Positions 40-12,450 of a stretch of 12,632 nucleotides of DNA are shown here, piece after piece. This DNA comes from a virus (lineage: Duplodnaviria > Heunggongvirae > Uroviricota > Caudoviricetes). The stretch lies in IMG/VR virus record IMGVR_UViG_2695420382_000014; one strand, 5' to 3'. The position numbers and the translations under genes are program-made. Each line of letters begins with the position of its first letter. Positions within the stretch are counted from its first letter, which is position 1. Under the pieces are notes generated by a model that ran no database searches, had not been told where the DNA came from, and saw only the letters and a list, made by a program, of their open reading frames with translations.

Positions 40-1101
40 TCAAGTATCAGTTGCGCTCTGATTTGTTCCTTCATCTTCAAACACGCCCTTTGTAGTCAGG
101 TATTCAGTAATGTATTTGTTCAGTGCCACAGGGTCTTTGTGAATGTCGATCGGACGTTCACGGACAAGGCCAAAAATAGTCTGGCGGTCGTAGCGAAGGG
201 CATCAGGCTGTTTGCGCATTGATGCCGAGATACGCTTCCAGTCTTCGCGGTCGTTGTCGATAACTTCATTTTTTGCCCAGCGATGGATGCTGCCGTCAAT
301 GTTTCCGGCATCCACATCACCAGGCCAGAGAGCGTAGGCCAGTTCGTCATCCAGTGTTTTCCATGTCTGCTTGTATTCGCGATGAATGGCAGCAATGGCC
401 GGGCTGATTTTTCCTGTTGAATTTTCAGTGTGCTGTTGATTGGCTCTGGCACGGGCGAGATCAACAACAGACGTGTATTTTCCGGTTTCCTTGCGTTCAC
501 CTTCGCGACATTTTTTCCAGATGCGCATCTCTGCCTGAATTTCTGGCCATTTTGCACCAGGCTTACATTTATGCTTAATCCACCCGATGGCATGCAGTTT
601 AATCTCCGGACACATGGCGTTAACTTCTGGCATTTTCATCAACGCTTCAACGATATGTCCGTCGAATGTTGCCATGTCTTCCTGCAACAGTTCCTGCGCG
701 CTAATCACCATATCAACGGTGATGTTTTCACATGTGTCGAACTTAACCATGACAGCGTTCTGTACTTCAGGGGCCAGCTTGTCAAAAGTGACGTTCATCG
801 GTTCGGATTCAGTCTCAACCGGGACAAAGGAAGCAGACTCCTCATCCCAGCGGTTTTCCTGCATATATTCAGCATCCCAGGAATCGAGGGCAGGGCGGGG
901 TATACCAGGTTTATCCTCGCAGACAATAAATTTATAAGCGCAGTCCTGAGCAGCCGGATAATGTTCCAGGAATTGCCAGTGAAATTTTGCGCGGGCGCGG
1001 CGTTCGTCGCCGGCTTCAATGGCAGTGGCTACAGGTTTAGCGCCTTCTTCTTTTGTTGCCTTTTCGTCCGGAATGGCGGCGCAAATAAAGACTTTACTCA
1101 T
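40..1101 (-). CDS. Hypothetical prophage protein, 353 aa, acidic, function unknown; last gene of the leftward operon in this window
   Basis: Long uninterrupted minus-strand ORF; GAGGT Shine-Dalgarno about 9 nt upstream of the ATG at 1101; same orientation as the upstream Rha and small ORFs. No family motif recognised by eye. Confidence 0.6.
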   Translation of the reverse strand: MSKVFICAAIPDEKATKEEGAKPVATAIEAGDERRARAKFHWQFLEHYPAAQDCAYKFIVCEDKPGIPRPALDSWDAEYMQENRWDEESASFVPVETESEPMNVTFDKLAPEVQNAVMVKFDTCENITVDMVISAQELLQEDMATFDGHIVEALMKMPEVNAMCPEIKLHAIGWIKHKCKPGAKWPEIQAEMRIWKKCREGERKETGKYTSVVDLARARANQQHTENSTGKISPAIAAIHREYKQTWKTLDDELAYALWPGDVDAGNIDGSIHRWAKNEVIDNDREDWKRISASMRKQPDALRYDRQTIFGLVRERPIDIHKDPVALNKYITEYLTTKGVFEDEGTNQSATDT

Positions 1102-1194
1102 TTTGTTTTAACCTCATTACAGATTTAAGGGTGAACAAATCCCTGCCATTGCTGGCATATAAAAATGAAACCGGATATTTATTACGTGGCTGCT

Positions 1195-1386
1195 TTAAAG
1201 ACCTGCCGGGACTTCTTTATTATCCTGGTGAATGATTTTATCAACCGGATAACAGTTACCGGGAATTTTCTGTTCAGCTGCAGCAGCCACGCATTCTTTC
1301 ATGGAGTTGTATACTCCGGTAACCAGTTCAGCTGGTTCGCCCGTATTAAGAATAACGGTCAGAACGAGTGCAAATGCTGTATTCAT
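1195..1386 (-). CDS. Small protein (63 aa) with N-terminal hydrophobic segment (MNTAFALVLTVILNTG), possible membrane or secreted peptide
   Basis: Start taken at internal ATG 1384-1386, which overlaps the upstream ORF stop as ATGA (translational coupling). The track ORF 1195..1440 extends further 5' but lacks that coupling. Confidence 0.4.
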   Translation of the reverse strand: MNTAFALVLTVILNTGEPAELVTGVYNSMKECVAAAAEQKIPGNCYPVDKIIHQDNKEVPAGL

Positions 1387-1571
1387 CGCCAGCATCCTTT
1401 TTGCATCAGACGCAAACGAGCCAGCATTGAAACAATGCATATTTTATTTAATGACTCCCGTTCGTGTTTTCTCTTGTTAATGGCATCTTCAGTAAATACC
1501 GTGTTACTGATAGTGACACCAATTTCAAAACAACCTTCAGTCGTATTAACGTTTGGTAATAACGTTTCCAT
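1383..1571 (-). CDS. Small hypothetical protein (62 aa)
   Basis: ATG at 1571 with GAGGA about 8 nt upstream; lies 11 nt downstream of the Rha stop; stop overlaps the next start (ATGA). Operon context is the only support. Confidence 0.4.
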   Translation of the reverse strand: METLLPNVNTTEGCFEIGVTISNTVFTEDAINKRKHERESLNKICIVSMLARLRLMQKGCWR

Positions 1572-1581
1572 TATCGCGTCC

Positions 1582-2139
1582 TCAACAATGAATTTTGAGT
1601 AATTGCTCTACAGTCATATTTTTAATTGCGCCCCGGTTAACAAGAGTCCATCCCTGTTCTTCCAGATAAAACCGGAAAGTCTCCATGGTACAGACCCGTG
1701 CGCCATCAGGAACGGTTTCGGTGAATCTGATGTTGCCGCGTTCGTCGAAGTGAACAACCAGGGTGCGGCCATCGCCTGGAATTATTTTGTCAGTGGGTGG
1801 GGTGTTATTCTGGCGCAGTTCGGCCTCCATGCGATCGAACTCAGCAATGTAGGCTTCTTTAAATGCAGCGGCTTTTTTGCCAGTGAATCCCATCACCAGG
1901 AAAACGAAGCCGTTTTTGGTGATTTGGTACATCGGGCGTTTTTCGCCTTTGGCGTCAGTGTAGGTGACGTCCTCAAAATTGAGGGCGTTAAATTCAGGTG
2001 AGCATTCAGTATTTGCGATGGCACGTAACACATTGTCGTGACGCTTGCCAAAGAACTCTGCGATCGCAATAGACGTAGTGACAGCGCGACCATTTTCGAT
2101 GGTTACGTCAGGGTGAGAAAGGGCAGGGATAGTAGCCAT
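1582..2139 (-). CDS. Rha-family phage regulatory protein (185 aa)
   Basis: N-terminal segment VTIENGRAVTTSIAIAEFFGKRHDNVLRAIAN resembles the Phage_pRha signature. Start placed at internal ATG 2137-2139 (GAGGAT upstream), because the longer track ORF to 2436 would read through a sigma70-like promoter and a hairpin plus U-run. Confidence 0.65.
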   Translation of the reverse strand: MATIPALSHPDVTIENGRAVTTSIAIAEFFGKRHDNVLRAIANTECSPEFNALNFEDVTYTDAKGEKRPMYQITKNGFVFLVMGFTGKKAAAFKEAYIAEFDRMEAELRQNNTPPTDKIIPGDGRTLVVHFDERGNIRFTETVPDGARVCTMETFRFYLEEQGWTLVNRGAIKNMTVEQLLKIHC

Positions 2140-2867: not shown

Positions 2868-3068
2868 ATGACTAAAGAAGAATTTGTCTCTTATATTTTT
2901 GATAAAACGGTTGAAATGTATGCCGCTACTTACGGGTCCTGTAATCCTCTGAATAAACCAGAGGGAAAAGATGATTTCGACAAAATTTACCGCTTCTTGG
3001 AGGACCGCTATATCAAAAGCTTAGAGGACGCAGGGATCAAATCCCCAGTGAAGTCACCATTGTCCTGA
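2868..3068 (+). CDS. Small AT-rich hypothetical protein (66 aa), moron-like
   Basis: ATG 2868 with AAGGA Shine-Dalgarno 6 nt upstream; AT-rich by eye relative to neighbours. The track ORF from 2694 starts with GTG and has no SD. Confidence 0.45.
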   Translation: MTKEEFVSYIFDKTVEMYAATYGSCNPLNKPEGKDDFDKIYRFLEDRYIKSLEDAGIKSPVKSPLS

Positions 3069-3413: not shown

Positions 3414-3566
3414 TCAGTCAGTGTTTCTGGCTAACCAGCAACGCGCGCCAGATTCGGTTTTAAACGTTTTGCTTTTGGTATACGTCATGGCGGTAAACGT
3501 TCCATCCTGGTTAGGGAACACGCCGCACACCAGAGATTCGTTGTTGCCAAGATCGATAGTATCCAT
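3414..3566 (-). CDS. Small YdaF-like (DUF1391-like) prophage protein, 50 aa
   Basis: Internal ATG at 3564-3566 has GAGG 5 nt upstream; the upstream ATG at 3620 has no SD. Sequence MDTIDLGNNESLV... resembles small Rac-type early-left proteins as recalled from memory. Confidence 0.5.
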   Translation of the reverse strand: MDTIDLGNNESLVCGVFPNQDGTFTAMTYTKSKTFKTESGARCWLARNTD

Positions 3567-3745
3567 GCTGACCTCATTTCCCCTTAACGCCGGGGTGGCG
3601 GAACAAAAAACCTGCTGCATAGTTAAAGATTGAACCCTGCCGTCATGTTCTTACGCCTCGGGCTGGCTACTTAACCCCTGACCACTGTCTGGTAACTCGA
3701 AGTATTGCCCTGCATTCTGTGGGGCGGGGTGGGTTGACGCCTGAA

Positions 3746-3786
3746 AAAATAGCATCATTATTTTTTGATGTAAATAGCATCGCTAT
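3746..3786 (-). promoter_or_regulatory. PL-like leftward promoter overlapped by two repressor-operator-like palindromes
   Basis: Minus strand -35 TTTACA (3769-3774), 17-nt spacer, -10 TATTTT (3746-3751). Operators: ATAGCatcGCTAT at 3774-3786 (perfect inverted repeat) and ATAGCatcATTAT at 3749-3761, centres 25 bp apart. Confidence 0.5.
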
Positions 3787-3801
3787 TGTTTTTGTTGGGG
3801 C

Positions 3802-3826
3802 AAGAAAAAACCACCCTAAGGTGGTT
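3802..3826 (-). terminator. Rho-independent terminator ending the repressor-antitoxin-toxin transcript
   Basis: Minus-strand RNA AACCACC-UUAG-GGUGGUU followed by UUUUCUUG: 7-bp perfect stem at 3809-3826 plus U-run, 17 nt downstream of the toxin stop. Confidence 0.6.
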
Positions 3827-3842
3827 CTGTCGGCGGGAATAA

Positions 3843-4133
3843 TTAACTGTTTTTGCCTGGATACTGTCTTCGAGAATGCACAATATTTACTACTTCTATG
3901 CTTGATGCTGTTACTCGGTAAAGGATGATGTAGTTAGGATGAGTTACAATTTCACGAAGACCAAGAACTCGCTCGCTTGGAGGATACAGGTAAGGATGCT
4001 CTGTGAGCGGCAAAACGGATGTTTCAATTCGAATTTTCATTCTGCGTGCTGCCGCGGGATTTTCTTTAGCTATGTAGGCTACGATCTGGCGCAAATCATC
4101 ACGAGCAGATGGTAGCCATAAAACGGGTAACAT
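3843..4133 (-). CDS. parE: ParE/RelE-family type II toxin (96 aa)
   Basis: Matches the ParE/RelE pattern by eye (ARDDLRQIVAYIAKENPAAARRM...GLREIV..NYIILYRV...IEVVNIVHSRRQ). Start codon overlaps the upstream small ORF's stop (TAATG). Confidence 0.75.
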   Translation of the reverse strand: MLPVLWLPSARDDLRQIVAYIAKENPAAARRMKIRIETSVLPLTEHPYLYPPSERVLGLREIVTHPNYIILYRVTASSIEVVNIVHSRRQYPGKNS

Positions 4134-4327
4134 TATTCACCTCTGTGAGTTGCAGCAGCAATTTGGGCAATAATTTGTTCCATTTCCGCCATTACCTCAT
4201 CATGCGGAATCGCCGGGCGGGGATCCGCGAGGCTTGCTGCTACTTTGGCCCGCAGCCATTCGTTGTAACTATTTTCTTGCTCAACTGTCTCAAATTCTGA
4301 AACCATTGGGGAAAGGACTGTACTCAT
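4133..4327 (-). CDS. Small acidic antitoxin candidate (64 aa), PaaA2-like
   Basis: Immediately upstream of and coupled to the ParE-like gene; GAGGAG Shine-Dalgarno; small acidic protein. The PaaA2 assignment rests on operon architecture recalled from the E. coli O157 PaaR2-PaaA2-ParE2 system, not on a recognised motif. Confidence 0.6.
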   Translation of the reverse strand: MSTVLSPMVSEFETVEQENSYNEWLRAKVAASLADPRPAIPHDEVMAEMEQIIAQIAAATHRGE

Positions 4328-4346
4328 TTTACATATCTCCTCTGAT

Positions 4347-4847
4347 TTAGGCGCGACGGCCTTTTTGTGCAGCTAACCACCGCGCAACCGTACGATCCAT
4401 TGATTCTTTTTTATCTTTCATCTCCTGAAGCATGTGTTCTTGATCTTCTTTCGGAAAAGCTCTGAACGTATGGATTAAATCTCGTTCCATCGGCTCTACG
4501 GCAAACGGTAGTTCATCCTCTGTTTGTTCTGTGTCTGCTGGTAATGCGACTATGTTATCTTGCTGTGGTTCTCGACAATACATCCTTGCAATTTGCAGCA
4601 AATCTACCATGTCTGGCCTGATTGACTCAGGGGGAACTTTCAGTAAGCCAGCAAACTTTAGAACAGCCTCAAGGTTTAGTGGGGTTTGACCATTTAGGTA
4701 GTGACTTACCGCCCCTTGTGTTGAAAACCCCATAATTTCCGCCGCACGTTCCTGAGTCAATCCCAACTGAGATTTCTTTGCCATCCAGATTTCTTTCAGT
4801 CTTCTGGCGGCGTTGAGGTCGGTGTCTGACAATGATTTTCTTTTCAT
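4347..4847 (-). CDS. XRE-family HTH repressor (cI-like, RacR/PaaR2-like), 166 aa
   Basis: HTH_XRE motif LGLTQERAAEIMGFSTQGAVSHYLNG; divergent from a Cro-like gene; operator palindromes in the intergenic region. Start chosen at ATG 4845-4847 (MKRKSL...); the track start at 4877 is GTG. Confidence 0.8.
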   Translation of the reverse strand: MKRKSLSDTDLNAARRLKEIWMAKKSQLGLTQERAAEIMGFSTQGAVSHYLNGQTPLNLEAVLKFAGLLKVPPESIRPDMVDLLQIARMYCREPQQDNIVALPADTEQTEDELPFAVEPMERDLIHTFRAFPKEDQEHMLQEMKDKKESMDRTVARWLAAQKGRRA

Positions 4848-4857
4848 ACATCCAATT

Positions 4858-4924
4858 CTAATAAGATTGCTAATCACTTTGAAATAGCATCACTATTTAC
4901 TTTTAAAAATAACAGTGCTATTAA
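4858..4924. promoter_or_regulatory. OR-like divergent promoter/operator region between repressor and cro-like gene
   Basis: Operators ATAGCatcACTAT (4884-4896) and ATAACagtGCTAT (4909-4921), centres 25 bp apart. Candidate rightward promoter -35 TTTACT 4896-4901 and -10 TATTAA 4919-4924. Candidate leftward promoter -35 TTTCAA (4879-4884) and -10 TATTAG (4858-4863), giving a near-leaderless repressor mRNA. Confidence 0.45.
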
Positions 4925-4958: not shown

Positions 4959-5222
4959 ATGAATCTTGGAGAATATTTGCATCATTTTCATATAACCCAG
5001 AGTTCATTTGCTGAGATTGTTGGCGCATCCCAAGGGATGGTCAGCCACGTTATAACGGGGCGTGCAAAACTTACAGGAGAAAAAATATTACGTTGGTGTG
5101 AAGCAACGGGATGGGTGGTGACCCCACATGAGATTGACAGTAAAACCTACCCCAACCCAACTGACGGCTTGCCTGCTGAGTTTCAGGCTAACACACAACC
5201 ATCGGCGGGGGTTGATTCATGA
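4959..5222 (+). CDS. Cro-like HTH protein (YdaS-like), 87 aa
   Basis: Divergent from the repressor; HTH-like segment SQGMVSHVITGRAKLTGEKILRWCEATGWVVTP; ATG 4959 preceded by AGGGCGG; stop overlaps the next start (ATGA). The track start at 4932 is TTG. Confidence 0.7.
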   Translation: MNLGEYLHHFHITQSSFAEIVGASQGMVSHVITGRAKLTGEKILRWCEATGWVVTPHEIDSKTYPNPTDGLPAEFQANTQPSAGVDS

Positions 5223-5644
5223 AAATCAAGCATGAACACATCCGCATGGCGATGAAAGCCTGGGCGCATCCGGACGGTGAAAAAGTTCCGGCAGCTGAAA
5301 TAACCAGGGTTTATTTCGAACTGGGAATGACGTTTCCGGTTCTGCATAACGACAGCAAGCACAACACGCTTTATCTCAACACCCAAAAGATTTTCCGTTG
5401 GCTGGATAAAGACACCCCTGACGCTGTTGAAAAAATTCAGGCGTTGTTACCTGCGATCGAAAGGGCAATGCCACCTCCGCTGGTGGCTCGAATGCGCAGC
5501 CACAGTTCAGCTTATTTTCGGGAACTGGTGGAGACGCATGAACGACTGGTGAGAGACGCTGATGATTTTGTCGCAGTGGCAATCGCCGGTTTCAATCAGA
5601 TGAACCGTGGTGGCCCGGCAGGAAATGCTGTGGCAGTACATTGA
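5219..5644 (+). CDS. YdaT-like protein (141 aa), CII-like regulator or putative toxin of Rac-type prophages
   Basis: Position and size match the Rac racR-ydaS-ydaT arrangement as recalled; translationally coupled to the Cro-like gene. Not confirmed by search. Confidence 0.6.
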   Translation: MKIKHEHIRMAMKAWAHPDGEKVPAAEITRVYFELGMTFPVLHNDSKHNTLYLNTQKIFRWLDKDTPDAVEKIQALLPAIERAMPPPLVARMRSHSSAYFRELVETHERLVRDADDFVAVAIAGFNQMNRGGPAGNAVAVH

Positions 5645-8280: not shown

Positions 8281-8295
8281 TTGCCGGGGGCGCTT

Positions 8296-8718
8296 ATGGC
8301 AAAAGTATTTACACAGGAAGAGCGGGAAAAAATTAAGGGGCAGGTTGTTGAACTCGTACGCCAGAGTGGGCGCGAGACGTTACGACAACTGGAAGCTAAA
8401 ACCGGGGCGACAAGATATTTAATAAGCGTTCTCGCCAGAGAGCTGGTTGCCAGTGGGGATGTATACAACTCTGGCTACGGGTTATTCCCGTCTGAACAGG
8501 CTCGTAAGGACTGGCAAAACGCCCGCAAAAAACTCTCAAGGGCAAATCTGAAGAAACCATCTGTGGTTGATCCTGACCTTATCTGGTCATTACCAGACGG
8601 AGAAATACGCCGCTACGACAGGCGTCAAAACATAATCTGTAGCGAGTGCCGGAAGAGTGAAGTTATGCAGCGTGTACCGGCTTTCTATCAGGGTGATTTT
8701 CAGGAGGCGGTACTGTGA
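8296..8718 (+). CDS. Hypothetical protein (140 aa): winged-helix-like N-terminus plus CxxC-containing tail
   Basis: ATG 8296 after a GGGGG run; the last 41 codons (8596-8718) form the first copy of a 192-bp tandem duplication. Confidence 0.55.
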   Translation: MAKVFTQEEREKIKGQVVELVRQSGRETLRQLEAKTGATRYLISVLARELVASGDVYNSGYGLFPSEQARKDWQNARKKLSRANLKKPSVVDPDLIWSLPDGEIRRYDRRQNIICSECRKSEVMQRVPAFYQGDFQEAVL

Positions 8719-8978
8719 GTGAAATTAGCTATCAGGCTTCAATTACCGCTGGCATTCGCATCAAAGGAGAGGAGCATGGAAATAAAAGACGGAGAAATAC
8801 GCCGCTACGACAGGCGCCTGAATATAATCTGTCGCGAGTGCCGGAAGAGCGAAGCTATGCAGCGTGTACTGGCTTTCTATCAGGGTAATTTTCAGGAGGC
8901 GATACTGTGAATGAAATTAGCTATCAGGCTTCAATTACCGCTGGCATTCGCATCAAAGGAGAGGAGCATGGAAATAAA
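8595..8978. repeat. Tandem duplication, 2 x 192 bp
   Basis: Unit 1 8595-8786 versus unit 2 8787-8978. The 123-bp coding-tail part is about 92% identical; the roughly 69-bp part carrying AAGGAGAGGAGC-ATG is near-identical (one mismatch). Confidence 0.85.
8776..8910 (+). CDS. Small CxxC protein (44 aa) created by the tandem duplication
   Basis: Strong Shine-Dalgarno AAGGAGAGGAG then ATG 8776; product MEIKDGEIRRYDRRLNIICRECRKSEAMQRVLAFYQGNFQEAIL is a diverged copy of the upstream protein's tail. Confidence 0.4.
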   Translation: MEIKDGEIRRYDRRLNIICRECRKSEAMQRVLAFYQGNFQEAIL

Positions 8979-9324
8979 ACCAGAAGATGAGTTAAGCAAT
9001 ATCGTTTTATTTCCGGTAAAAGAGGATGACCCTCGTAATCAGGTTAATTTTCTTTATGAGCCATCGGAAAGACCATATTGCCATCACGCCTCTGTACGGG
9101 TTGACGAAAAAGAGCGTCAGGTCCGCTGTAAAATTTGCGGTGCAGTTGTGGAGCCATTTGACTGGATGCTCTCTGTGGCGAAAAGAGAAACCAGACTGGC
9201 AGATGATGTAAGGCTCTTGCGCCAGGAGGAGCGGGAAAGGCGAAAAAATATAGAAAAGCTAATCCAGATTGAGCGTAATGCGAAAGCGCGGATACGCAGG
9301 GTGACAAAATATAGCCCCGAATAA
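8968..9324 (+). CDS. Hypothetical protein (118 aa) with zinc-ribbon-like motif and basic C-terminus
   Basis: Same SD/ATG module as the 44-aa gene (second repeat copy); contains C-H-H ... CKICG; C-terminus rich in R/E/K. Confidence 0.55.
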   Translation: MEIKPEDELSNIVLFPVKEDDPRNQVNFLYEPSERPYCHHASVRVDEKERQVRCKICGAVVEPFDWMLSVAKRETRLADDVRLLRQEERERRKNIEKLIQIERNAKARIRRVTKYSPE

Positions 9325-9538: not shown

Positions 9539-11371
9539 ATGGCCCGCATGTTTGATACATTAGGATTTTACATTATGAATGTGCAACATTTTGATTTTTT
9601 TACAGATAATGAGTTTTCTAATCTGGAAAGATATCAAACTTGTAAAGCCATGGCCAAAGGTTATGCGGGCAATTACAAAACCGGGCAGTCAAGGTTGATG
9701 CATGCCCGCTCATACTGCTTCAGCATCGTAGCTGCATATTGGGATACCCTTGCAAAAAAGCAAAAAAGCAGCATTAAAATGAGGGCAGTACCGCACACTG
9801 TTTACATAGAAGACATTCCATGTGATGCACGCGAGCTCGCTGAACGAACAGGTGAGCTTATTGCTCAATTTCCGGCGGAGGACGCTGGATATCTGATTGG
9901 GTCAATTTATACGGTAATGCTGCCATCCGCTTACCGTTCGGAATTGGGGGCTTACTATACCCCCCCACCTTTGGTAGCGCGTCTCTTGGACCTGGCTGAA
10001 AAGTCTGGTGTTGATTTTTCTCATGCATCGGTTATTGATCCTGCGTGTGGTGGCGGTGCATTTTTGGCACCAGTAGCCATTCGAATGTTAAAAAAAGACA
10101 AGGGGTCTTCCCCTGAATGGATGTTGAGGAGAATCAGTCGTCGTTTAAAGGGGATAGAAATCGATCCATTTGCGGCTTGGATGAGTTTGGTATTGCTCGA
10201 ATCTGTACTAATGCCACTATGTGTAAAGGTAAAACGTAGATTGCCTGAAGATACAATTATTGTTGCTGATGCGCTTCAGCAAGATAAATTTTCTGGTTAT
10301 GATCTTGTGGTAGGGAATCCGCCTTACGGACGTGTCACTCTCGATATTAAAACGAGAGAAAAATATTCTCGTTCGTTATTTGGTCATGCAAATCTATATG
10401 GATTGTTCACCGACTTAGCTGTTCGCATGGTTAAAGAGAAAACAGGAGTTATTGCATTTCTTACGCCAACTTCTTTTCTTGGTGGGCAGTATTTCACCGC
10501 GCTGCGAACCCTTTTGACCGAAAAAACTACTCCGTATGCCCTTGATTTCGTCACTGACAGGGATGGGGTCTTTGACGATGTTCTCCAGGAAACAATGTTG
10601 ACAGCATTCAAGGCGGGAGAACATAAAGTTCGGGCCCAGGTATCCTCACTTGTCCCTAAGGGGTTGAACAAAGCAAAAATTGAGAAAATAGGTAATGTTG
10701 ATATAGAAAAAGGTGGAGCAACGTGGCTTTTGCCACGCGTTAAAGATGATGCCTGTTTTCTTAATGTATTAAAACAGATGTCTACGCGTTTAGCTGATCT
10801 GGGATACTCAGTCTCTACAGGTCAGTTAGTCTGGAATCGATTTAAGTCGCAGTTGCGTACGACGAAAGGAAAAAATAGCTACCCATTAGTCTGGGCGGAA
10901 TCAATAACTTCAGCTGGTTTTCGTTTTAGTGCAGACAGAAAAAATCATGTTCCCTATATCGATATAACCCCACAACAGGGTTTCCTTGTGACAAAATCTG
11001 AATGTGTGCTTGTTCAGCGGACAACATCGAAGGAACAGGACAGAAGGATTTTAGCGGCAATTTTACCTCAGGGATTTATAGATGAAACTGGTGGCGTAGT
11101 AGTTGAAAACCATATTAATATTGTATATTCAAACGGATTGTTCTCTGCGGTTCGCCCTGATGTTATTGATATGCTACTTAATTCGCATGTTGTCGATCGG
11201 GCGTTCAGGTGTATAAGCGGAAGTGTTGCTGTTTCGGCCTATGAATTGAATTCAATCCCGTTGCCTTCTCTGGAGCAGGTGATGGAGATTCAATCGTTAA
11301 TTGATGCTGGCGTCCACAGACGGATTATTGAGAGAACTATCGCTGGTTTCTATGGAGTGATGATTGCATGA
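9539..11371 (+). CDS. Gamma-class N6-adenine DNA methyltransferase (Eco57I/TaqI-like MTase domain), 610 aa
   Basis: Motif order X (GAYYTPPPLV), I (VIDPACGGGAFL), IV (VGNPPYG), then a roughly 350-aa C-terminal target-recognition-like region. Start is uncertain: ATG 9539, or ATG 9575 which has TAGGAT 8 nt upstream. Confidence 0.85.
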   Translation: MARMFDTLGFYIMNVQHFDFFTDNEFSNLERYQTCKAMAKGYAGNYKTGQSRLMHARSYCFSIVAAYWDTLAKKQKSSIKMRAVPHTVYIEDIPCDARELAERTGELIAQFPAEDAGYLIGSIYTVMLPSAYRSELGAYYTPPPLVARLLDLAEKSGVDFSHASVIDPACGGGAFLAPVAIRMLKKDKGSSPEWMLRRISRRLKGIEIDPFAAWMSLVLLESVLMPLCVKVKRRLPEDTIIVADALQQDKFSGYDLVVGNPPYGRVTLDIKTREKYSRSLFGHANLYGLFTDLAVRMVKEKTGVIAFLTPTSFLGGQYFTALRTLLTEKTTPYALDFVTDRDGVFDDVLQETMLTAFKAGEHKVRAQVSSLVPKGLNKAKIEKIGNVDIEKGGATWLLPRVKDDACFLNVLKQMSTRLADLGYSVSTGQLVWNRFKSQLRTTKGKNSYPLVWAESITSAGFRFSADRKNHVPYIDITPQQGFLVTKSECVLVQRTTSKEQDRRILAAILPQGFIDETGGVVVENHINIVYSNGLFSAVRPDVIDMLLNSHVVDRAFRCISGSVAVSAYELNSIPLPSLEQVMEIQSLIDAGVHRRIIERTIAGFYGVMIA

Positions 11372-12450
11372 ATCTGCCTGTTGTTCCCCCATTGAATGTT
11401 ATCCGGGAAAGATTACAATTAATTTTCCCTGAAGGGACTGAGAATCGTGGATATTTAATTCGGGAAATAGCTGCAAAAACAATTTTTGTCATGTTTTATG
11501 CTGGTGCGGTTGAGGGGCTGGGGCGATGGATAAGGCCCAGCCAGGTTGTAAGTATGGGAGATTCGCAGGCTGCTCTTACTGATGATGCGTCCAGAGAAAG
11601 CTGGGTAAAGATGACTTTCTCTAAACAAAAGATAAGGCCTGCTGATGCATGGTATGCGGAAAATACGCGTGAGCCAATACGTGATGAAACTATAAAAAAT
11701 GGCCTAATACCTTGCAATGCAATTGTTGAGCGTAAAGGTATACCCACCACATCCTCTCGTCCTCGTTACAGTTTGAATCGCTCTTTTGCAGCACTCTTTG
11801 ATGCCGGGCTTGAAGGAGATTCGCTGCTGAGTGCAATAAGTTCCTGGCAAGAAAATCATTTGAACAAAGCCGCTCTTGCTAGGTTGCGTTTATTGAAATC
11901 AGGGGCAGTGATTGCTGCTGATGCCGTAGTCGTCACTTTCCCAAATGGAGAGAAGAGAACTTTAGCTCCGGGCCCGTCAAGTACAATAGCTAAGGCCGTC
12001 ATCGAAGTTTTTGCTCCTAATTTTCTTAAGAATCCAACTGTGCTCTGGTTGTCTGAATCCGGGAATAAAGTTGTTGCTCAGGATGATGTATTGGCAAAAG
12101 CATTGGGGCTGAATATTGATGCCTCAAAAGCACTTCCAGATATTATTTTGATTGATTTGGGAGAGGACCGAACGGGTTCGGACATGCTTGTAGTTTTCAC
12201 TGAAGTAGTTGCGACAGATGGGCCTATAAACAGGGAACGAAAAGTTACTCTCACTCATTTGGCTATTGACGCTGGGTTCAGCGAGAAAAATCTTGCATTC
12301 CTTACGGCATTTATGGACAGAAGTGCTCTGCCTTTTAAAAAGGCAATACCAGAATTGGCGTGGGGATCTTATGCATGGTTTGCTTCTGAACCGGAGCACT
12401 TAATTGATCTTCGGGATGGTTATCCGGTAAAGATCAGCCAGAGAAAATGA
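11368..12450 (+). CDS. Putative restriction endonuclease partner of the methyltransferase (possibly BsuBI/PstI-like), 360 aa
   Basis: Start overlaps the methyltransferase stop (ATGA); same AT-rich composition by eye. The nuclease assignment is inferred from context; no unambiguous PD-(D/E)xK or HNH motif was found by eye. Confidence 0.5.
   Translation: MNLPVVPPLNVIRERLQLIFPEGTENRGYLIREIAAKTIFVMFYAGAVEGLGRWIRPSQVVSMGDSQAALTDDASRESWVKMTFSKQKIRPADAWYAENTREPIRDETIKNGLIPCNAIVERKGIPTTSSRPRYSLNRSFAALFDAGLEGDSLLSAISSWQENHLNKAALARLRLLKSGAVIAADAVVVTFPNGEKRTLAPGPSSTIAKAVIEVFAPNFLKNPTVLWLSESGNKVVAQDDVLAKALGLNIDASKALPDIILIDLGEDRTGSDMLVVFTEVVATDGPINRERKVTLTHLAIDAGFSEKNLAFLTAFMDRSALPFKKAIPELAWGSYAWFASEPEHLIDLRDGYPVKISQRK

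Follow-up and report, generated by a model that had tools for sequence, protein, structure and literature searches.

The stretch of DNA analysed here in full (12,632 nucleotides, hereafter the window) very probably carries the immunity region of a lambdoid Escherichia coli prophage of the CP-933P/Qin type, with a heteroimmune allele of the PaaR-PaaA-ParE system whose toxin-antitoxin pair would serve as addiction cargo. This reading is built on the identities of the genes, the anatomy of their operators and promoters, the conservation of the region and the purifying selection acting on it, all of which were established in this analysis. Earlier work on E. coli O157:H7 described and tested this layout of a repressor with a ParE/PaaA pair, and the window carries an ordinary variant of it.

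Gene content of the immunity region

A trio of minus-strand genes runs from the repressor (4847-4347) through the antitoxin (4327-4133) to the toxin (4133-3843) and is flanked on both sides by matching operators. The trio and its neighbours are as follows.

3414-3620, minus strand: DUF1391 (ydfA-like) gene, first gene of the PL operon (Pfam DUF1391, E 3.3e-28)
3843-4133, minus strand: ParE-family toxin, 96 aa, basic, pI 9.89
4133-4327, minus strand: PaaA-family antitoxin, 64 aa, pI 4.55, without a DNA-binding domain
4328-4346, minus strand: repressor-antitoxin spacer, 19 nt, reading GCCTAAATCAGAGGAGATATGTAAAATG, with a GAGGAG ribosome-binding site and no space for a promoter
4347-4847, minus strand: PaaR-type immunity repressor, 166 aa, lambda-CI-like N-terminal HTH and PaaR/DicA-like C-terminal region
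4959-5222, plus strand: YdaS-like HTH protein, putative Cro analogue (Pfam HTH_3, E 4.9e-4), from the RefSeq start in a 99%-identical locus
5212-5229, no strand: YdaT operator OM, a PRE-like site, TTGATTN6AATCAA with 0 mismatches, spanning the ydaS stop and the ydaT start
5219-5644, plus strand: YdaT-family protein, putative CII analogue (Pfam YdaT_toxin, E 5.1e-9)

The original prediction had described a collinear repressor, small acidic ORF and toxin with 19-nt and 1-nt junctions, and the ORF list and the sequence bear this out to the base, the acidity of the 64-aa protein being confirmed by its pI. The repressor ORF extends over 4347-4877 (minus strand) from a GTG start, and its in-frame ATG at 4847, which yields the 166-aa protein, is the RefSeq repressor start in a 99.3%-identical E. 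coli locus. GAGGAG is located 8 nt upstream of the antitoxin ATG, and the toxin start overlaps the antitoxin stop by 1 base (TAATG), with GAGGTG upstream of the overlap. The names given in RefSeq are generic: "helix-turn-helix domain-containing protein", "RelB family antitoxin" and "RelE/ParE family toxin".

The toxin belongs to the Pfam family ParE_toxin (PF05016, E 1.8e-17), matches ParE2 of O157:H7 (PDB 5cw7_B) with an E value of 6.7e-37 over residues 1-93, and is 67-88% identical to E. coli alleles. The sole Pfam domain of the antitoxin is PaaA2 (PF21217, E 3e-23), no ParD or RHH domain being detected in it by Pfam; it matches PaaA2 of O157:H7 (PDB 3zbe_A) with an E value of 1.4e-23, and shares 67% identity with the PaaA2-type protein and 78-86% with other E. 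coli alleles. The earlier guess of a ParE toxin-antitoxin pair was therefore right, both proteins matching solved O157:H7 chains, and the choice that it had left between the PaaA2 and ParD families for the 64-aa protein falls to PaaA2.

The roles of the YdaS-like protein as Cro and of the YdaT-family protein as CII are assigned by analogy with CP-933P, and the position of the YdaT operator in the window agrees with the CP-933P footprint. On the other side of the trio, the region of the DUF1391 gene shares 90% DNA identity with the Qin ydfA region. A type II restriction-modification pair (PADLOC match), unrelated to the trio, is also encoded in the window, and the exonuclease gene at its left end is truncated relative to relatives.

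The repressor

Pfam recognises only HTH_3 and HTH_31 in the repressor, whose residues 2-81 match the N-terminal domain of lambda CI (phmmer against 1lmb_3, E 2.9e-9); a PDB sequence search returned lambda CI N-domains only and no chain named PaaR. Over its C-terminal ~45 residues the protein scarcely differs from PaaR-type regulators, among them the PaaR2-type (MQKKE...) and further alleles. The alignment with PaaR-type alleles has 25 invariant columns, mostly C-terminal, and positions 74-130 of the NCBIfam DicA model match the protein with an E value of 7e-8. An S24 (LexA-like) autocleavage domain is absent according to Pfam, and the matches of full-length CI chains end at about residue 90. 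LexA boxes, which might have explained how a repressor without a cleavage domain is induced, were searched for in the window and none was found, either with the full consensus at up to 3 mismatches or as CTGT-N8-ACAG. DNA homology ends inside the repressor gene at about 4472, and a recent recombination breakpoint was considered there and rejected: synonymous divergence exceeds 1 across the conserved block, so that the similarity has been kept by selection and not by recent exchange.

Operators, promoters and terminator

The operator word specific to this repressor type, AATAGCAYCRYTATT, is present in exact copies, two at OL and two at OR. With up to 3 mismatches allowed, the window has 8 strand-matches where 1.9 are expected, and none of 200 shuffles attains 8. 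The regulatory features are listed below.

3746-3774, minus strand: PL-like promoter, TTTACA-17-TATTTT preceded by TG, directed into the DUF1391/ydfA-like gene
3748-3787, no strand: OL, two exact 15-bp AATAGCAYCRYTATT sites (3748-3762 and 3773-3787) with centres 25 bp apart, overlapping the PL-like promoter
3802-3826, minus strand: intrinsic-terminator-like hairpin, a 9-bp GC-rich stem followed by a T-run, ending the repressor-antitoxin-toxin unit
4855-4883, minus strand: PRM-like promoter, TTCAAA-17-TAGAAT
4883-4922, no strand: OR, two exact 15-bp AATAGCAYCRYTATT sites (4883-4897 and 4908-4922) with centres 25 bp apart
4896-4924, plus strand: PR-like promoter, TTTACT-17-TATTAA, TG-extended, for the ydaS-like gene, read by eye

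The OR pair lies in the gap that separates the repressor gene from the divergent gene. OL and OR form a 48-nt repeat with copies 1135 bp apart, and the geometry of promoter and operators is identical for the PL-like and PR-like promoters. From this repeat structure, together with the co-variation described below, we infer that the repressor would bind the AATAGCAYCRYTATT operators. The PL-like promoter and operators expected beyond the toxin gene are thus in place. A third candidate operator at OR (4860-4874) has 4 mismatches and is too weak to claim.

Promoter-like matches are in general at chance level in the scanner (4 found and 3.5 expected), and the promoters proposed here owe their credibility solely to where they lie with respect to operators and genes. 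An internal candidate at 4760-4732, inside the repressor gene, was rejected on account of this chance level. The scanner accepts a -10 element only if its sixth base is T and therefore did not return the PR-like promoter. Only 7 nt separate the end of the PRM-like -10 element from the repressor ATG, which predicts a leaderless repressor mRNA; loci L001 and L004 keep both TAGAAT and its spacing. The centre of operator 4883-4897 is ~43 bp upstream of the same ATG.

The single shared terminator predicted just before the PL-like promoter was recovered by folding as a hairpin followed by a T-run (-15.1 kcal/mol, z = -2.73, with 1 of 200 shuffles folding as well), and in relatives this position is taken by a different hairpin. 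The hairpin of the window escaped the pattern scanner, probably as the stem can extend into the T-run. Altogether, the 19-nt spacer, the coupled stop and start and the single terminator are consistent with one transcript.

Relation to known systems

The closest published counterpart is the cryptic prophage CP-933P of E. coli O157:H7, whose PaaR2 takes the part of CI, as Jurenas et al. demonstrated (2021, PMC8630535; for the paaR2-paaA2-parE2 system see Hallez 2010, as cited in PMC8630535). PaaR2 represses PR, PRM and a PL which, with its OL, is located beyond parE2 (PMC8630535), while YdaS acts as Cro and YdaT as CII (PMC8630535; for YdaT also PMC9986795). The operon structure, the PaaR2 footprint and the YdaT-activated PRE were determined experimentally, and the paaR2 mRNA was likewise found to be leaderless (PMC8630535). 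The window shares with CP-933P the gene order, the strand and the place of the trio between OR and PL/OL, the divergent ydaS-ydaT pair with an identical YdaT operator word, the PaaA2-family antitoxin without a DNA-binding domain, the ParE-fold toxin, the repressor C-terminus and a -10 element placed for a leaderless repressor mRNA. It differs in that toxin and antitoxin each share 67% identity with their PaaR2-type counterparts, the repressor has 166 aa instead of 123 and is 30% identical overall, its N-terminal domain is lambda-CI-like and not that of PaaR2, the operator word is AATAGCAYCRYTATT and not a repeat of the GTTTAGTAA type, and two clear operators are found per side, whereas three were reported there. 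The resemblance to the PaaR2-PaaA2-ParE2 layout noted in the original prediction consequently holds, both in the family matches and in the architecture. It had also set the window apart through a regulator doubling as the immunity repressor, and this contrast falls away since PaaR2 is itself a CI analogue (PMC8630535).

Another copy in O157:H7 (locus L003) probably corresponds to the homologue in CP-933M to which PMC8630535 refers. It has a toxin 83% and an antitoxin 78% identical to those of the window and has the repressor C-terminus and the flanks in common with it, but its repressor (133 aa) carries another N-domain and its operator word at OL and OR is AAAAACTGTT / AACAGTTTTT.

The likeness to lambda cI-rexA-rexB extends to the accessory genes on the presumed repressor transcript, the terminator before OL/PL and the homology of the N-domain to CI. 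The original prediction had compared the positions, and the pair does lie after the repressor and before OL/PL; that paaA2-parE2 replaces rexA-rexB is already stated in print (Prolic-Kalinsek et al. 2023, PMC9986795). Unlike in lambda, the cargo proteins are PaaA2-family and ParE proteins unrelated to RexA and RexB, the repressor has no S24 autocleavage domain, and no exclusion phenotype is known for the PaaA-ParE cargo. The dicA-ydfABC-dicF-dicB region of Qin in E. coli K-12 is an immunity region of the same type, and the DicA C-terminus shares 29% identity with that of the repressor (E 2e-6), but no toxin-antitoxin pair lies between dicA and ydfA, making Qin an "empty slot" version. With the canonical two-gene parDE systems (RK2, Vibrio cholerae parDE2) the pair shares a ParE-fold toxin, a small acidic antitoxin and, presumably, a function in stabilising plasmids or chromosomes; however, ParD binds DNA through a ribbon-helix-helix domain and controls its own operon, whereas PaaA has no such domain and a separate repressor regulates.

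Occurrence, conservation and selection

Relatives are present in 842 of 5426 complete E. coli genomes (~15%), the repressor type of the window in 72. The order exo-dicB-ydfA / parE-paaA-repressor / ydaS-ydaT-replication genes is identical in five E. coli loci, which include the true PaaR2 type (MQKKE N-terminus, 97-bp OR, GTTTAGTAA repeats). The repeated word, present at OL as well as OR, changes with the type of repressor N-domain; what is conserved across these types is the toxin-antitoxin pair together with the repressor C-terminus. The dN/dS ratio is 0.08 for the repressor against a 78%-identical relative, 0.07-0.14 for the antitoxin and ~0.05 for the toxin, in comparisons where synonymous sites are near saturation (divergence >1). 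By these ratios, all three genes are under strong purifying selection.

Outside E. coli, the pair is found without a PaaR gene in Alphaproteobacteria and on plasmids of Pseudomonas, Acinetobacter and Bordetella, beside replication or integrase genes; tblastn detected the PaaR C-terminus in 0 of 36 non-E. coli PaaA-ParE loci. The empty slot of Qin and the bare pair elsewhere fit a mobile stabilisation cassette captured by an immunity operon.

Proposed circuit and function

For the window, DNA binding, co-transcription, toxicity, antitoxin lability and addiction are all transferred from the homologue. By binding the four AATAGCAYCRYTATT operators, the repressor would silence transcription in both directions, that of the PL operon (ydfA-like gene ... 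dicB) to the left and that of the ydaS-ydaT operon to the right, and from the site ~43 bp upstream it would probably also stimulate its own leaderless transcript. This transcript would run through the 19-nt spacer into the antitoxin gene, continue into the toxin gene with translational coupling at TAATG, and stop at the hairpin 3826-3802, before PL. YdaT acting at 5212-5229 may provide a second, PRE-like input to leftward transcription of the repressor and the pair. As PaaA lacks a DNA-binding domain, control of the pair would be delegated to the phage switch. PaaA would neutralise ParE by wrapping round it and, by analogy with PaaA2, may be labile to ClpXP/ClpAP. If the prophage stretch were lost or replaced, leftover ParE would poison the cell through topoisomerase interference and SOS induction, and the pair would in this way stabilise the immunity region as addiction cargo. 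The tested function of the homologue is indeed post-segregational killing, seen as stabilisation of a mini-F plasmid (PMC8630535).

Toxin-antitoxin systems are often defence systems, and the original prediction hinted at a defence slot of the rexAB kind. A superinfecting phage would then stop transcription of the host or the prophage or trigger degradation of the antitoxin, and the freed ParE would abort the infection and protect the population of lysogens. The pair does occupy the lambda rexA-rexB slot, it would be expressed from the lysogenic promoter, and the type II restriction-modification pair lies in the same prophage window. However, none of the three proteins matches a PADLOC model, no publication on phage defence by PaaA-ParE turned up in our literature search, the experimental phenotype of the homologue is plasmid stabilisation, and relatives on plasmids lie beside replication genes and are named "stability determinant". 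The hint thus finds no support, and we consider this role unlikely.

The 19-nt spacer leaves the pair no space for a promoter of its own and thereby ties it to repressor transcription, which might suggest that the pair locks the lysogenic state: in the YdaS state the repressor operon would be silenced, labile PaaA would decay and ParE would kill or arrest derepressing cells. In CP-933P, however, transcription of the toxin-antitoxin genes goes on whichever state the switch is in, neither state gave detectable ParE2 activity, and SOS-positive cells are equally rare in both (0.88% and 0.95%; PMC8630535); moreover, the YdaT/PRE-like input would feed the operon in the anti-immune state too. Such a lock appears highly improbable. 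That the pair is a relic in decay which no longer has a function, as might be imagined from the truncated exonuclease gene, which suggests that the prophage may be defective, is almost certainly wrong, given three intact ORFs of full length relative to the solved structures, dN/dS values of 0.05-0.09 despite synonymous divergence >1, and intact ribosome-binding sites and coupled stop/start.

Addiction cargo remains the preferred reading, and its significance beyond annotation is small: the generic RefSeq names can be replaced by that of a PaaR-PaaA-ParE immunity module. The co-variation of operator words with the repressor N-domain gives comparative support to the published circuit, and the bare two-gene cassette outside E. 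coli prophages supports the published idea of cassette capture. PaaR2 was called a CI analogue "despite lacking sequence similarity" (PMC8630535), and the repressor allele of the window directly links PaaR-type repressors to lambda CI by sequence. It is also conceivable, if doubtful, that the pair polices the immunity region, killing lysogens whose repressor and operator set has been replaced by heteroimmune recombination, or aborting superinfection. If so, the pair would be a selfish device of "immunity-allele addiction", and the conserved C-terminus of the repressor would travel together with the toxin-antitoxin genes as one portable unit, the differing DNA-binding domains attached to it (PaaR2-like, PaaR1-like, lambda-CI-like) having arisen by exchange or divergence.

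Genes and protein identities

The original prediction described three collinear ORFs joined by 19-nt and 1-nt junctions and served by a common terminator, and the ORF list, the sequence and RNA folding all agree with this description:

4847-4347, minus strand: repressor, 166 aa counted from the ATG
4327-4133, minus strand: PaaA antitoxin, 64 aa, pI 4.55
4133-3843, minus strand: ParE toxin, 96 aa, pI 9.89
3826-3802, minus strand: hairpin (9-bp stem) and T-run, directly upstream of the PL-like promoter

At its longest, the repressor ORF starts at a GTG (4877); the ATG at 4847 is the RefSeq start in an E. coli locus 99.3% identical. The repressor-antitoxin spacer of 19 nt carries GAGGAG 8 nt ahead of the antitoxin ATG, while GAGGTG comes before the one-base overlap (TAATG) of antitoxin stop and toxin start. 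The hairpin has a folding energy of -15.1 kcal/mol (z = -2.7; 1 of 200 shuffles as stable). It was absent from the list of a simple terminator scanner, probably because its stem can run into the T-run.

The toxin matches Pfam ParE_toxin (E 1.8e-17), and its residues 1-93 resemble the solved E. coli O157 ParE2 (5cw7_B, E 6.7e-37). Profile comparison of the 64-aa protein, suggested with the original prediction, places it in the PaaA2 family (Pfam, E 3e-23); it resembles solved PaaA2 (3zbe_A, E 1.4e-23) and has no DNA-binding domain. In Pfam the regulator matches HTH_3 and HTH_31 only, with no S24 peptidase domain. Its residues 2-81 are related to the N-terminal domain of lambda CI (E 2.9e-9; roughly 40% identity by hand count on the alignment), and its C-terminal ~57 residues to the C-terminal end of the DicA model (E 7e-8). 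Over its last ~45 residues it is nearly the same as the regulators found upstream of other PaaA-ParE pairs in E. coli. A PDB search with the regulator returned lambda CI chains only and no chain named PaaR.

Operators and promoters

The 15-bp quasi-palindrome AATAGCAYCRYTATT is present in four copies in the window, forming one pair at each of two sites, OL and OR:

3748-3762 and 3773-3787: OL operators, overlapping the -10 and -35 of the PL-like promoter
4883-4897 and 4908-4922: OR operators, between the repressor gene and the divergent gene
3774-3746, minus strand: PL-like promoter, TTTACA-17-TATTTT with TG, directly downstream of the hairpin
plus strand: PR-like promoter, TTTACT-17-TATTAA
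4883-4855, minus strand: PRM-like promoter, TTCAAA-17-TAGAAT, ending 7 nt short of the repressor ATG
4959-5222, plus strand: YdaS-like HTH protein, divergent from the repressor
5219-5644, plus strand: YdaT-family protein, divergent from the repressor

Allowing up to 3 mismatches, 8 strand-matches were counted against 1.9 expected, a number reached in none of 200 shuffles. Operator centres are 25 bp apart inside each pair, and 1135 bp separate the OL pair from the OR pair. The geometry of promoter and operators is identical for the PL-like (minus) and PR-like (plus) promoters; promoter-like matches overall were at chance level in the window with our scanner. With 7 nt between the PRM-like promoter and the ATG, the repressor mRNA would be leaderless, and its start would lie ~43 bp downstream of the centre of operator 4883-4897. 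In lambda, CI bound at OR2 is placed in this way to activate PRM.

The sole candidate for a third OR site has 4 mismatches and was set aside as too weak. A rightward promoter-like sequence overlapping OL, antisense to parE (TTGACG-16-CATTAT, 3734-3761, plus), is probably a chance match. No LexA box was found in the window. An exact copy of the published YdaT operator, TTGATTN6AATCAA, spans the ydaS-like/ydaT junction (5212-5229), which is the position of the YdaT footprint in CP-933P, the O157:H7 cryptic prophage with paaR2-paaA2-parE2.

Comparison with CP-933P and other E. coli loci

In CP-933P, paaR2-paaA2-parE2 sits in the immunity region (Jurenas et al. 2021, PMC8630535). There PaaR2 functions as an analogue of CI: its mRNA is leaderless, its footprint covers PR/PRM, and at low levels it activates PRM and represses PR; YdaS is the Cro analogue and YdaT the CII analogue, activating a PRE; PL933P, with OL1-3 beyond parE2, is repressed ~100-fold by PaaR2 and YdaS (PMC8630535). 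The original prediction suggested that a regulator acting as immunity repressor sets the window apart from PaaR2 systems, a role already published for PaaR2 (PMC8630535). The rexAB-equivalent slot that it assigned to the pair is correct and also in print, paaA2-parE2 replacing rexA-rexB (Prolic-Kalinsek et al. 2023, PMC9986795).

Among 5426 complete E. coli genomes, a distant DNA search detected relatives of 3843-4847 in 842; the module is present twice in O157:H7 genomes. Matches spanning 80% or more of the query, and hence the same repressor type at ~78% identity, come from 72 genomes; only 2 genomes are at least 99% identical. Five annotated loci have a common gene order: exonuclease - DUF1482 - dicB - ... 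- ydfA (DUF1391) / parE - paaA - repressor / ydaS-like - ydaT - replication genes. Judged by its sequence, L005 represents the published PaaR2 type, with a regulator beginning MQKKE, an OR region of 97 bp and GTTTAGTAA-type repeats. Toxin and antitoxin are each 67% identical to the PaaR2-type proteins, against 78-88% and 78-86%, respectively, to other E. coli alleles; the regulator is 30% identical overall to its PaaR2-type counterpart, with conservation mostly C-terminal. In L005 (E. coli SD134209, 4730-6468), IS1203 interrupts ydaT, leaving the repressor-antitoxin-toxin genes intact.

The repeated word, found at both OL and OR, differs with the type of regulator N-domain: AATAGCA...CTATT in the window, L001 and L004, AAAAACTGTT/AACAGTTTTT in L003, CACTTTTAAAG-type in L002 and TTTAGTAA/ACTAAAC in L005. 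This co-variation is comparative evidence that points to the regulator acting at both sites, as immunity repressors do. DNA homology breaks off within the repressor gene; saturation of synonymous sites across the conserved block rules this point out as a recent recombination junction.

In K-12 Qin the slot is present but lacks the pair: a 166-nt gap separates dicA from ydfA. Its ydfA region is 90% identical to the window's, and the DicA C-terminus is 29% identical to that of the window repressor. Among sequenced phages, one genome, Escherichia phage Evi, carries a PaaR2-type module.

Pairs outside E. coli

Pairs of the PaaA-ParE type are present in Bartonella, Acetobacteraceae, sphingomonads and others, with antitoxins 45-80% identical and no detectable PaaR C-terminus upstream. 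On Pseudomonas, Acinetobacter and Bordetella plasmids they adjoin replication or integrase genes and are sometimes annotated 'stability determinant'. Bartonella antitoxins (L007, L012, L016, L017, L019, L025, L040) show 66-72% identity to the E. coli protein; so close a likeness across bacterial classes suggests horizontal spread. The same loci have a conserved XRE-type HTH gene in opposite orientation, about 500-860 bp upstream of paaA (at 3001), and, to judge by split tblastn matches, several of the parE genes in Bartonella seem to carry frameshifts or interruptions.

Other features of the window

Inside a mechanical ORF (1582-2436, minus), Rfam identifies a C4 antisense RNA (2197-2284, minus, 70.9 bits) and isrK (2309-2385, minus, 61.2 bits); a Rha-family gene of the PL operon follows downstream of both. 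The arrangement resembles the P1 ImmI / Gifsy-1 isrK-antirepressor module and could bear on inactivation of a repressor with no cleavage domain. The Pfam Phage_ASH match in the N-terminal part of the 284-aa ORF is probably translated RNA region, the real Rha start probably lying near 2140. The same operon encodes DicB-like (62 aa, 1383-1571, minus) and DUF1482 (81 aa, 1195-1440, minus) proteins, assigned by DNA homology (window 43-1597, 86-94% identical to annotated L002, L003 and L005).

The exonuclease ORF (40-1101, minus) encodes 353 aa against ~823 aa in relatives, and homology to these ends at 43, right at the stop codon of the ORF. The gene has thus been truncated or rearranged at the window's left end, and the prophage may be a defective one. 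A tandem duplication of 192 bp (8595-8786 / 8787-8978, copies 94% identical) gives rise to the repeated ORFs 8281-8718, 8719-8910 and 8911-9324, which have N- and C-terminal peptide blocks in common. A type II restriction-modification pair (9539-12450, plus), its genes overlapping by 4 nt, encodes a 610-aa methyltransferase (PADLOC MTase_II, E 1.8e-300) and a 360-aa BsuBI/PstI-family endonuclease (REase_II, E 2.8e-128).

Proposed mechanism and alternatives

Under the mechanism that we favour, the repressor would bind the four operators, turning off PL and PR, and would probably stimulate its own leaderless transcript; this would include paaA and parE and end at the 3826-3802 hairpin, with YdaT at 5212-5229 as a second input. 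PaaA would neutralise ParE, and loss of the segment would free ParE and poison the cell. The identities, anatomy, co-variation and selection are shown by the present analysis. By analogy with the homologous system, we infer operator binding, co-transcription, toxicity, antitoxin lability and addiction. The CP-933P region stabilises a mini-F as well as ccdAB does, and the pair was proposed to have inserted into the immunity region as an addiction module limiting rearrangement (PMC8630535).

We regard as rather unlikely a role of the pair in guarding the immunity allele itself or in phage exclusion. RexAB-like abortive infection would fit the position of the pair, but the three proteins have no PADLOC match and we found no supporting literature. 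A lysogeny lock, in which the pair kills cells that switch state, is contradicted for CP-933P by SOS frequencies that are equal in both states (PMC8630535). The CP-933P locus is bistable, and ParE2 activity went undetected in either switch state (PMC8630535). Intact ORFs and strong purifying selection on all three genes (dN/dS 0.05-0.09 against L004, L003 and L002; dS at least 1) contradict a decaying remnant.

The architecture and its interpretation are known, and the window holds a new allele of it. This allele adds a repressor with a lambda-CI-like N-domain joined to a PaaR C-terminus and with its own operator word; the comparison adds OL/OR co-variation across alleles, prevalence figures and, outside E. 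coli prophages, the occurrence of the pair as a two-gene cassette on its own.
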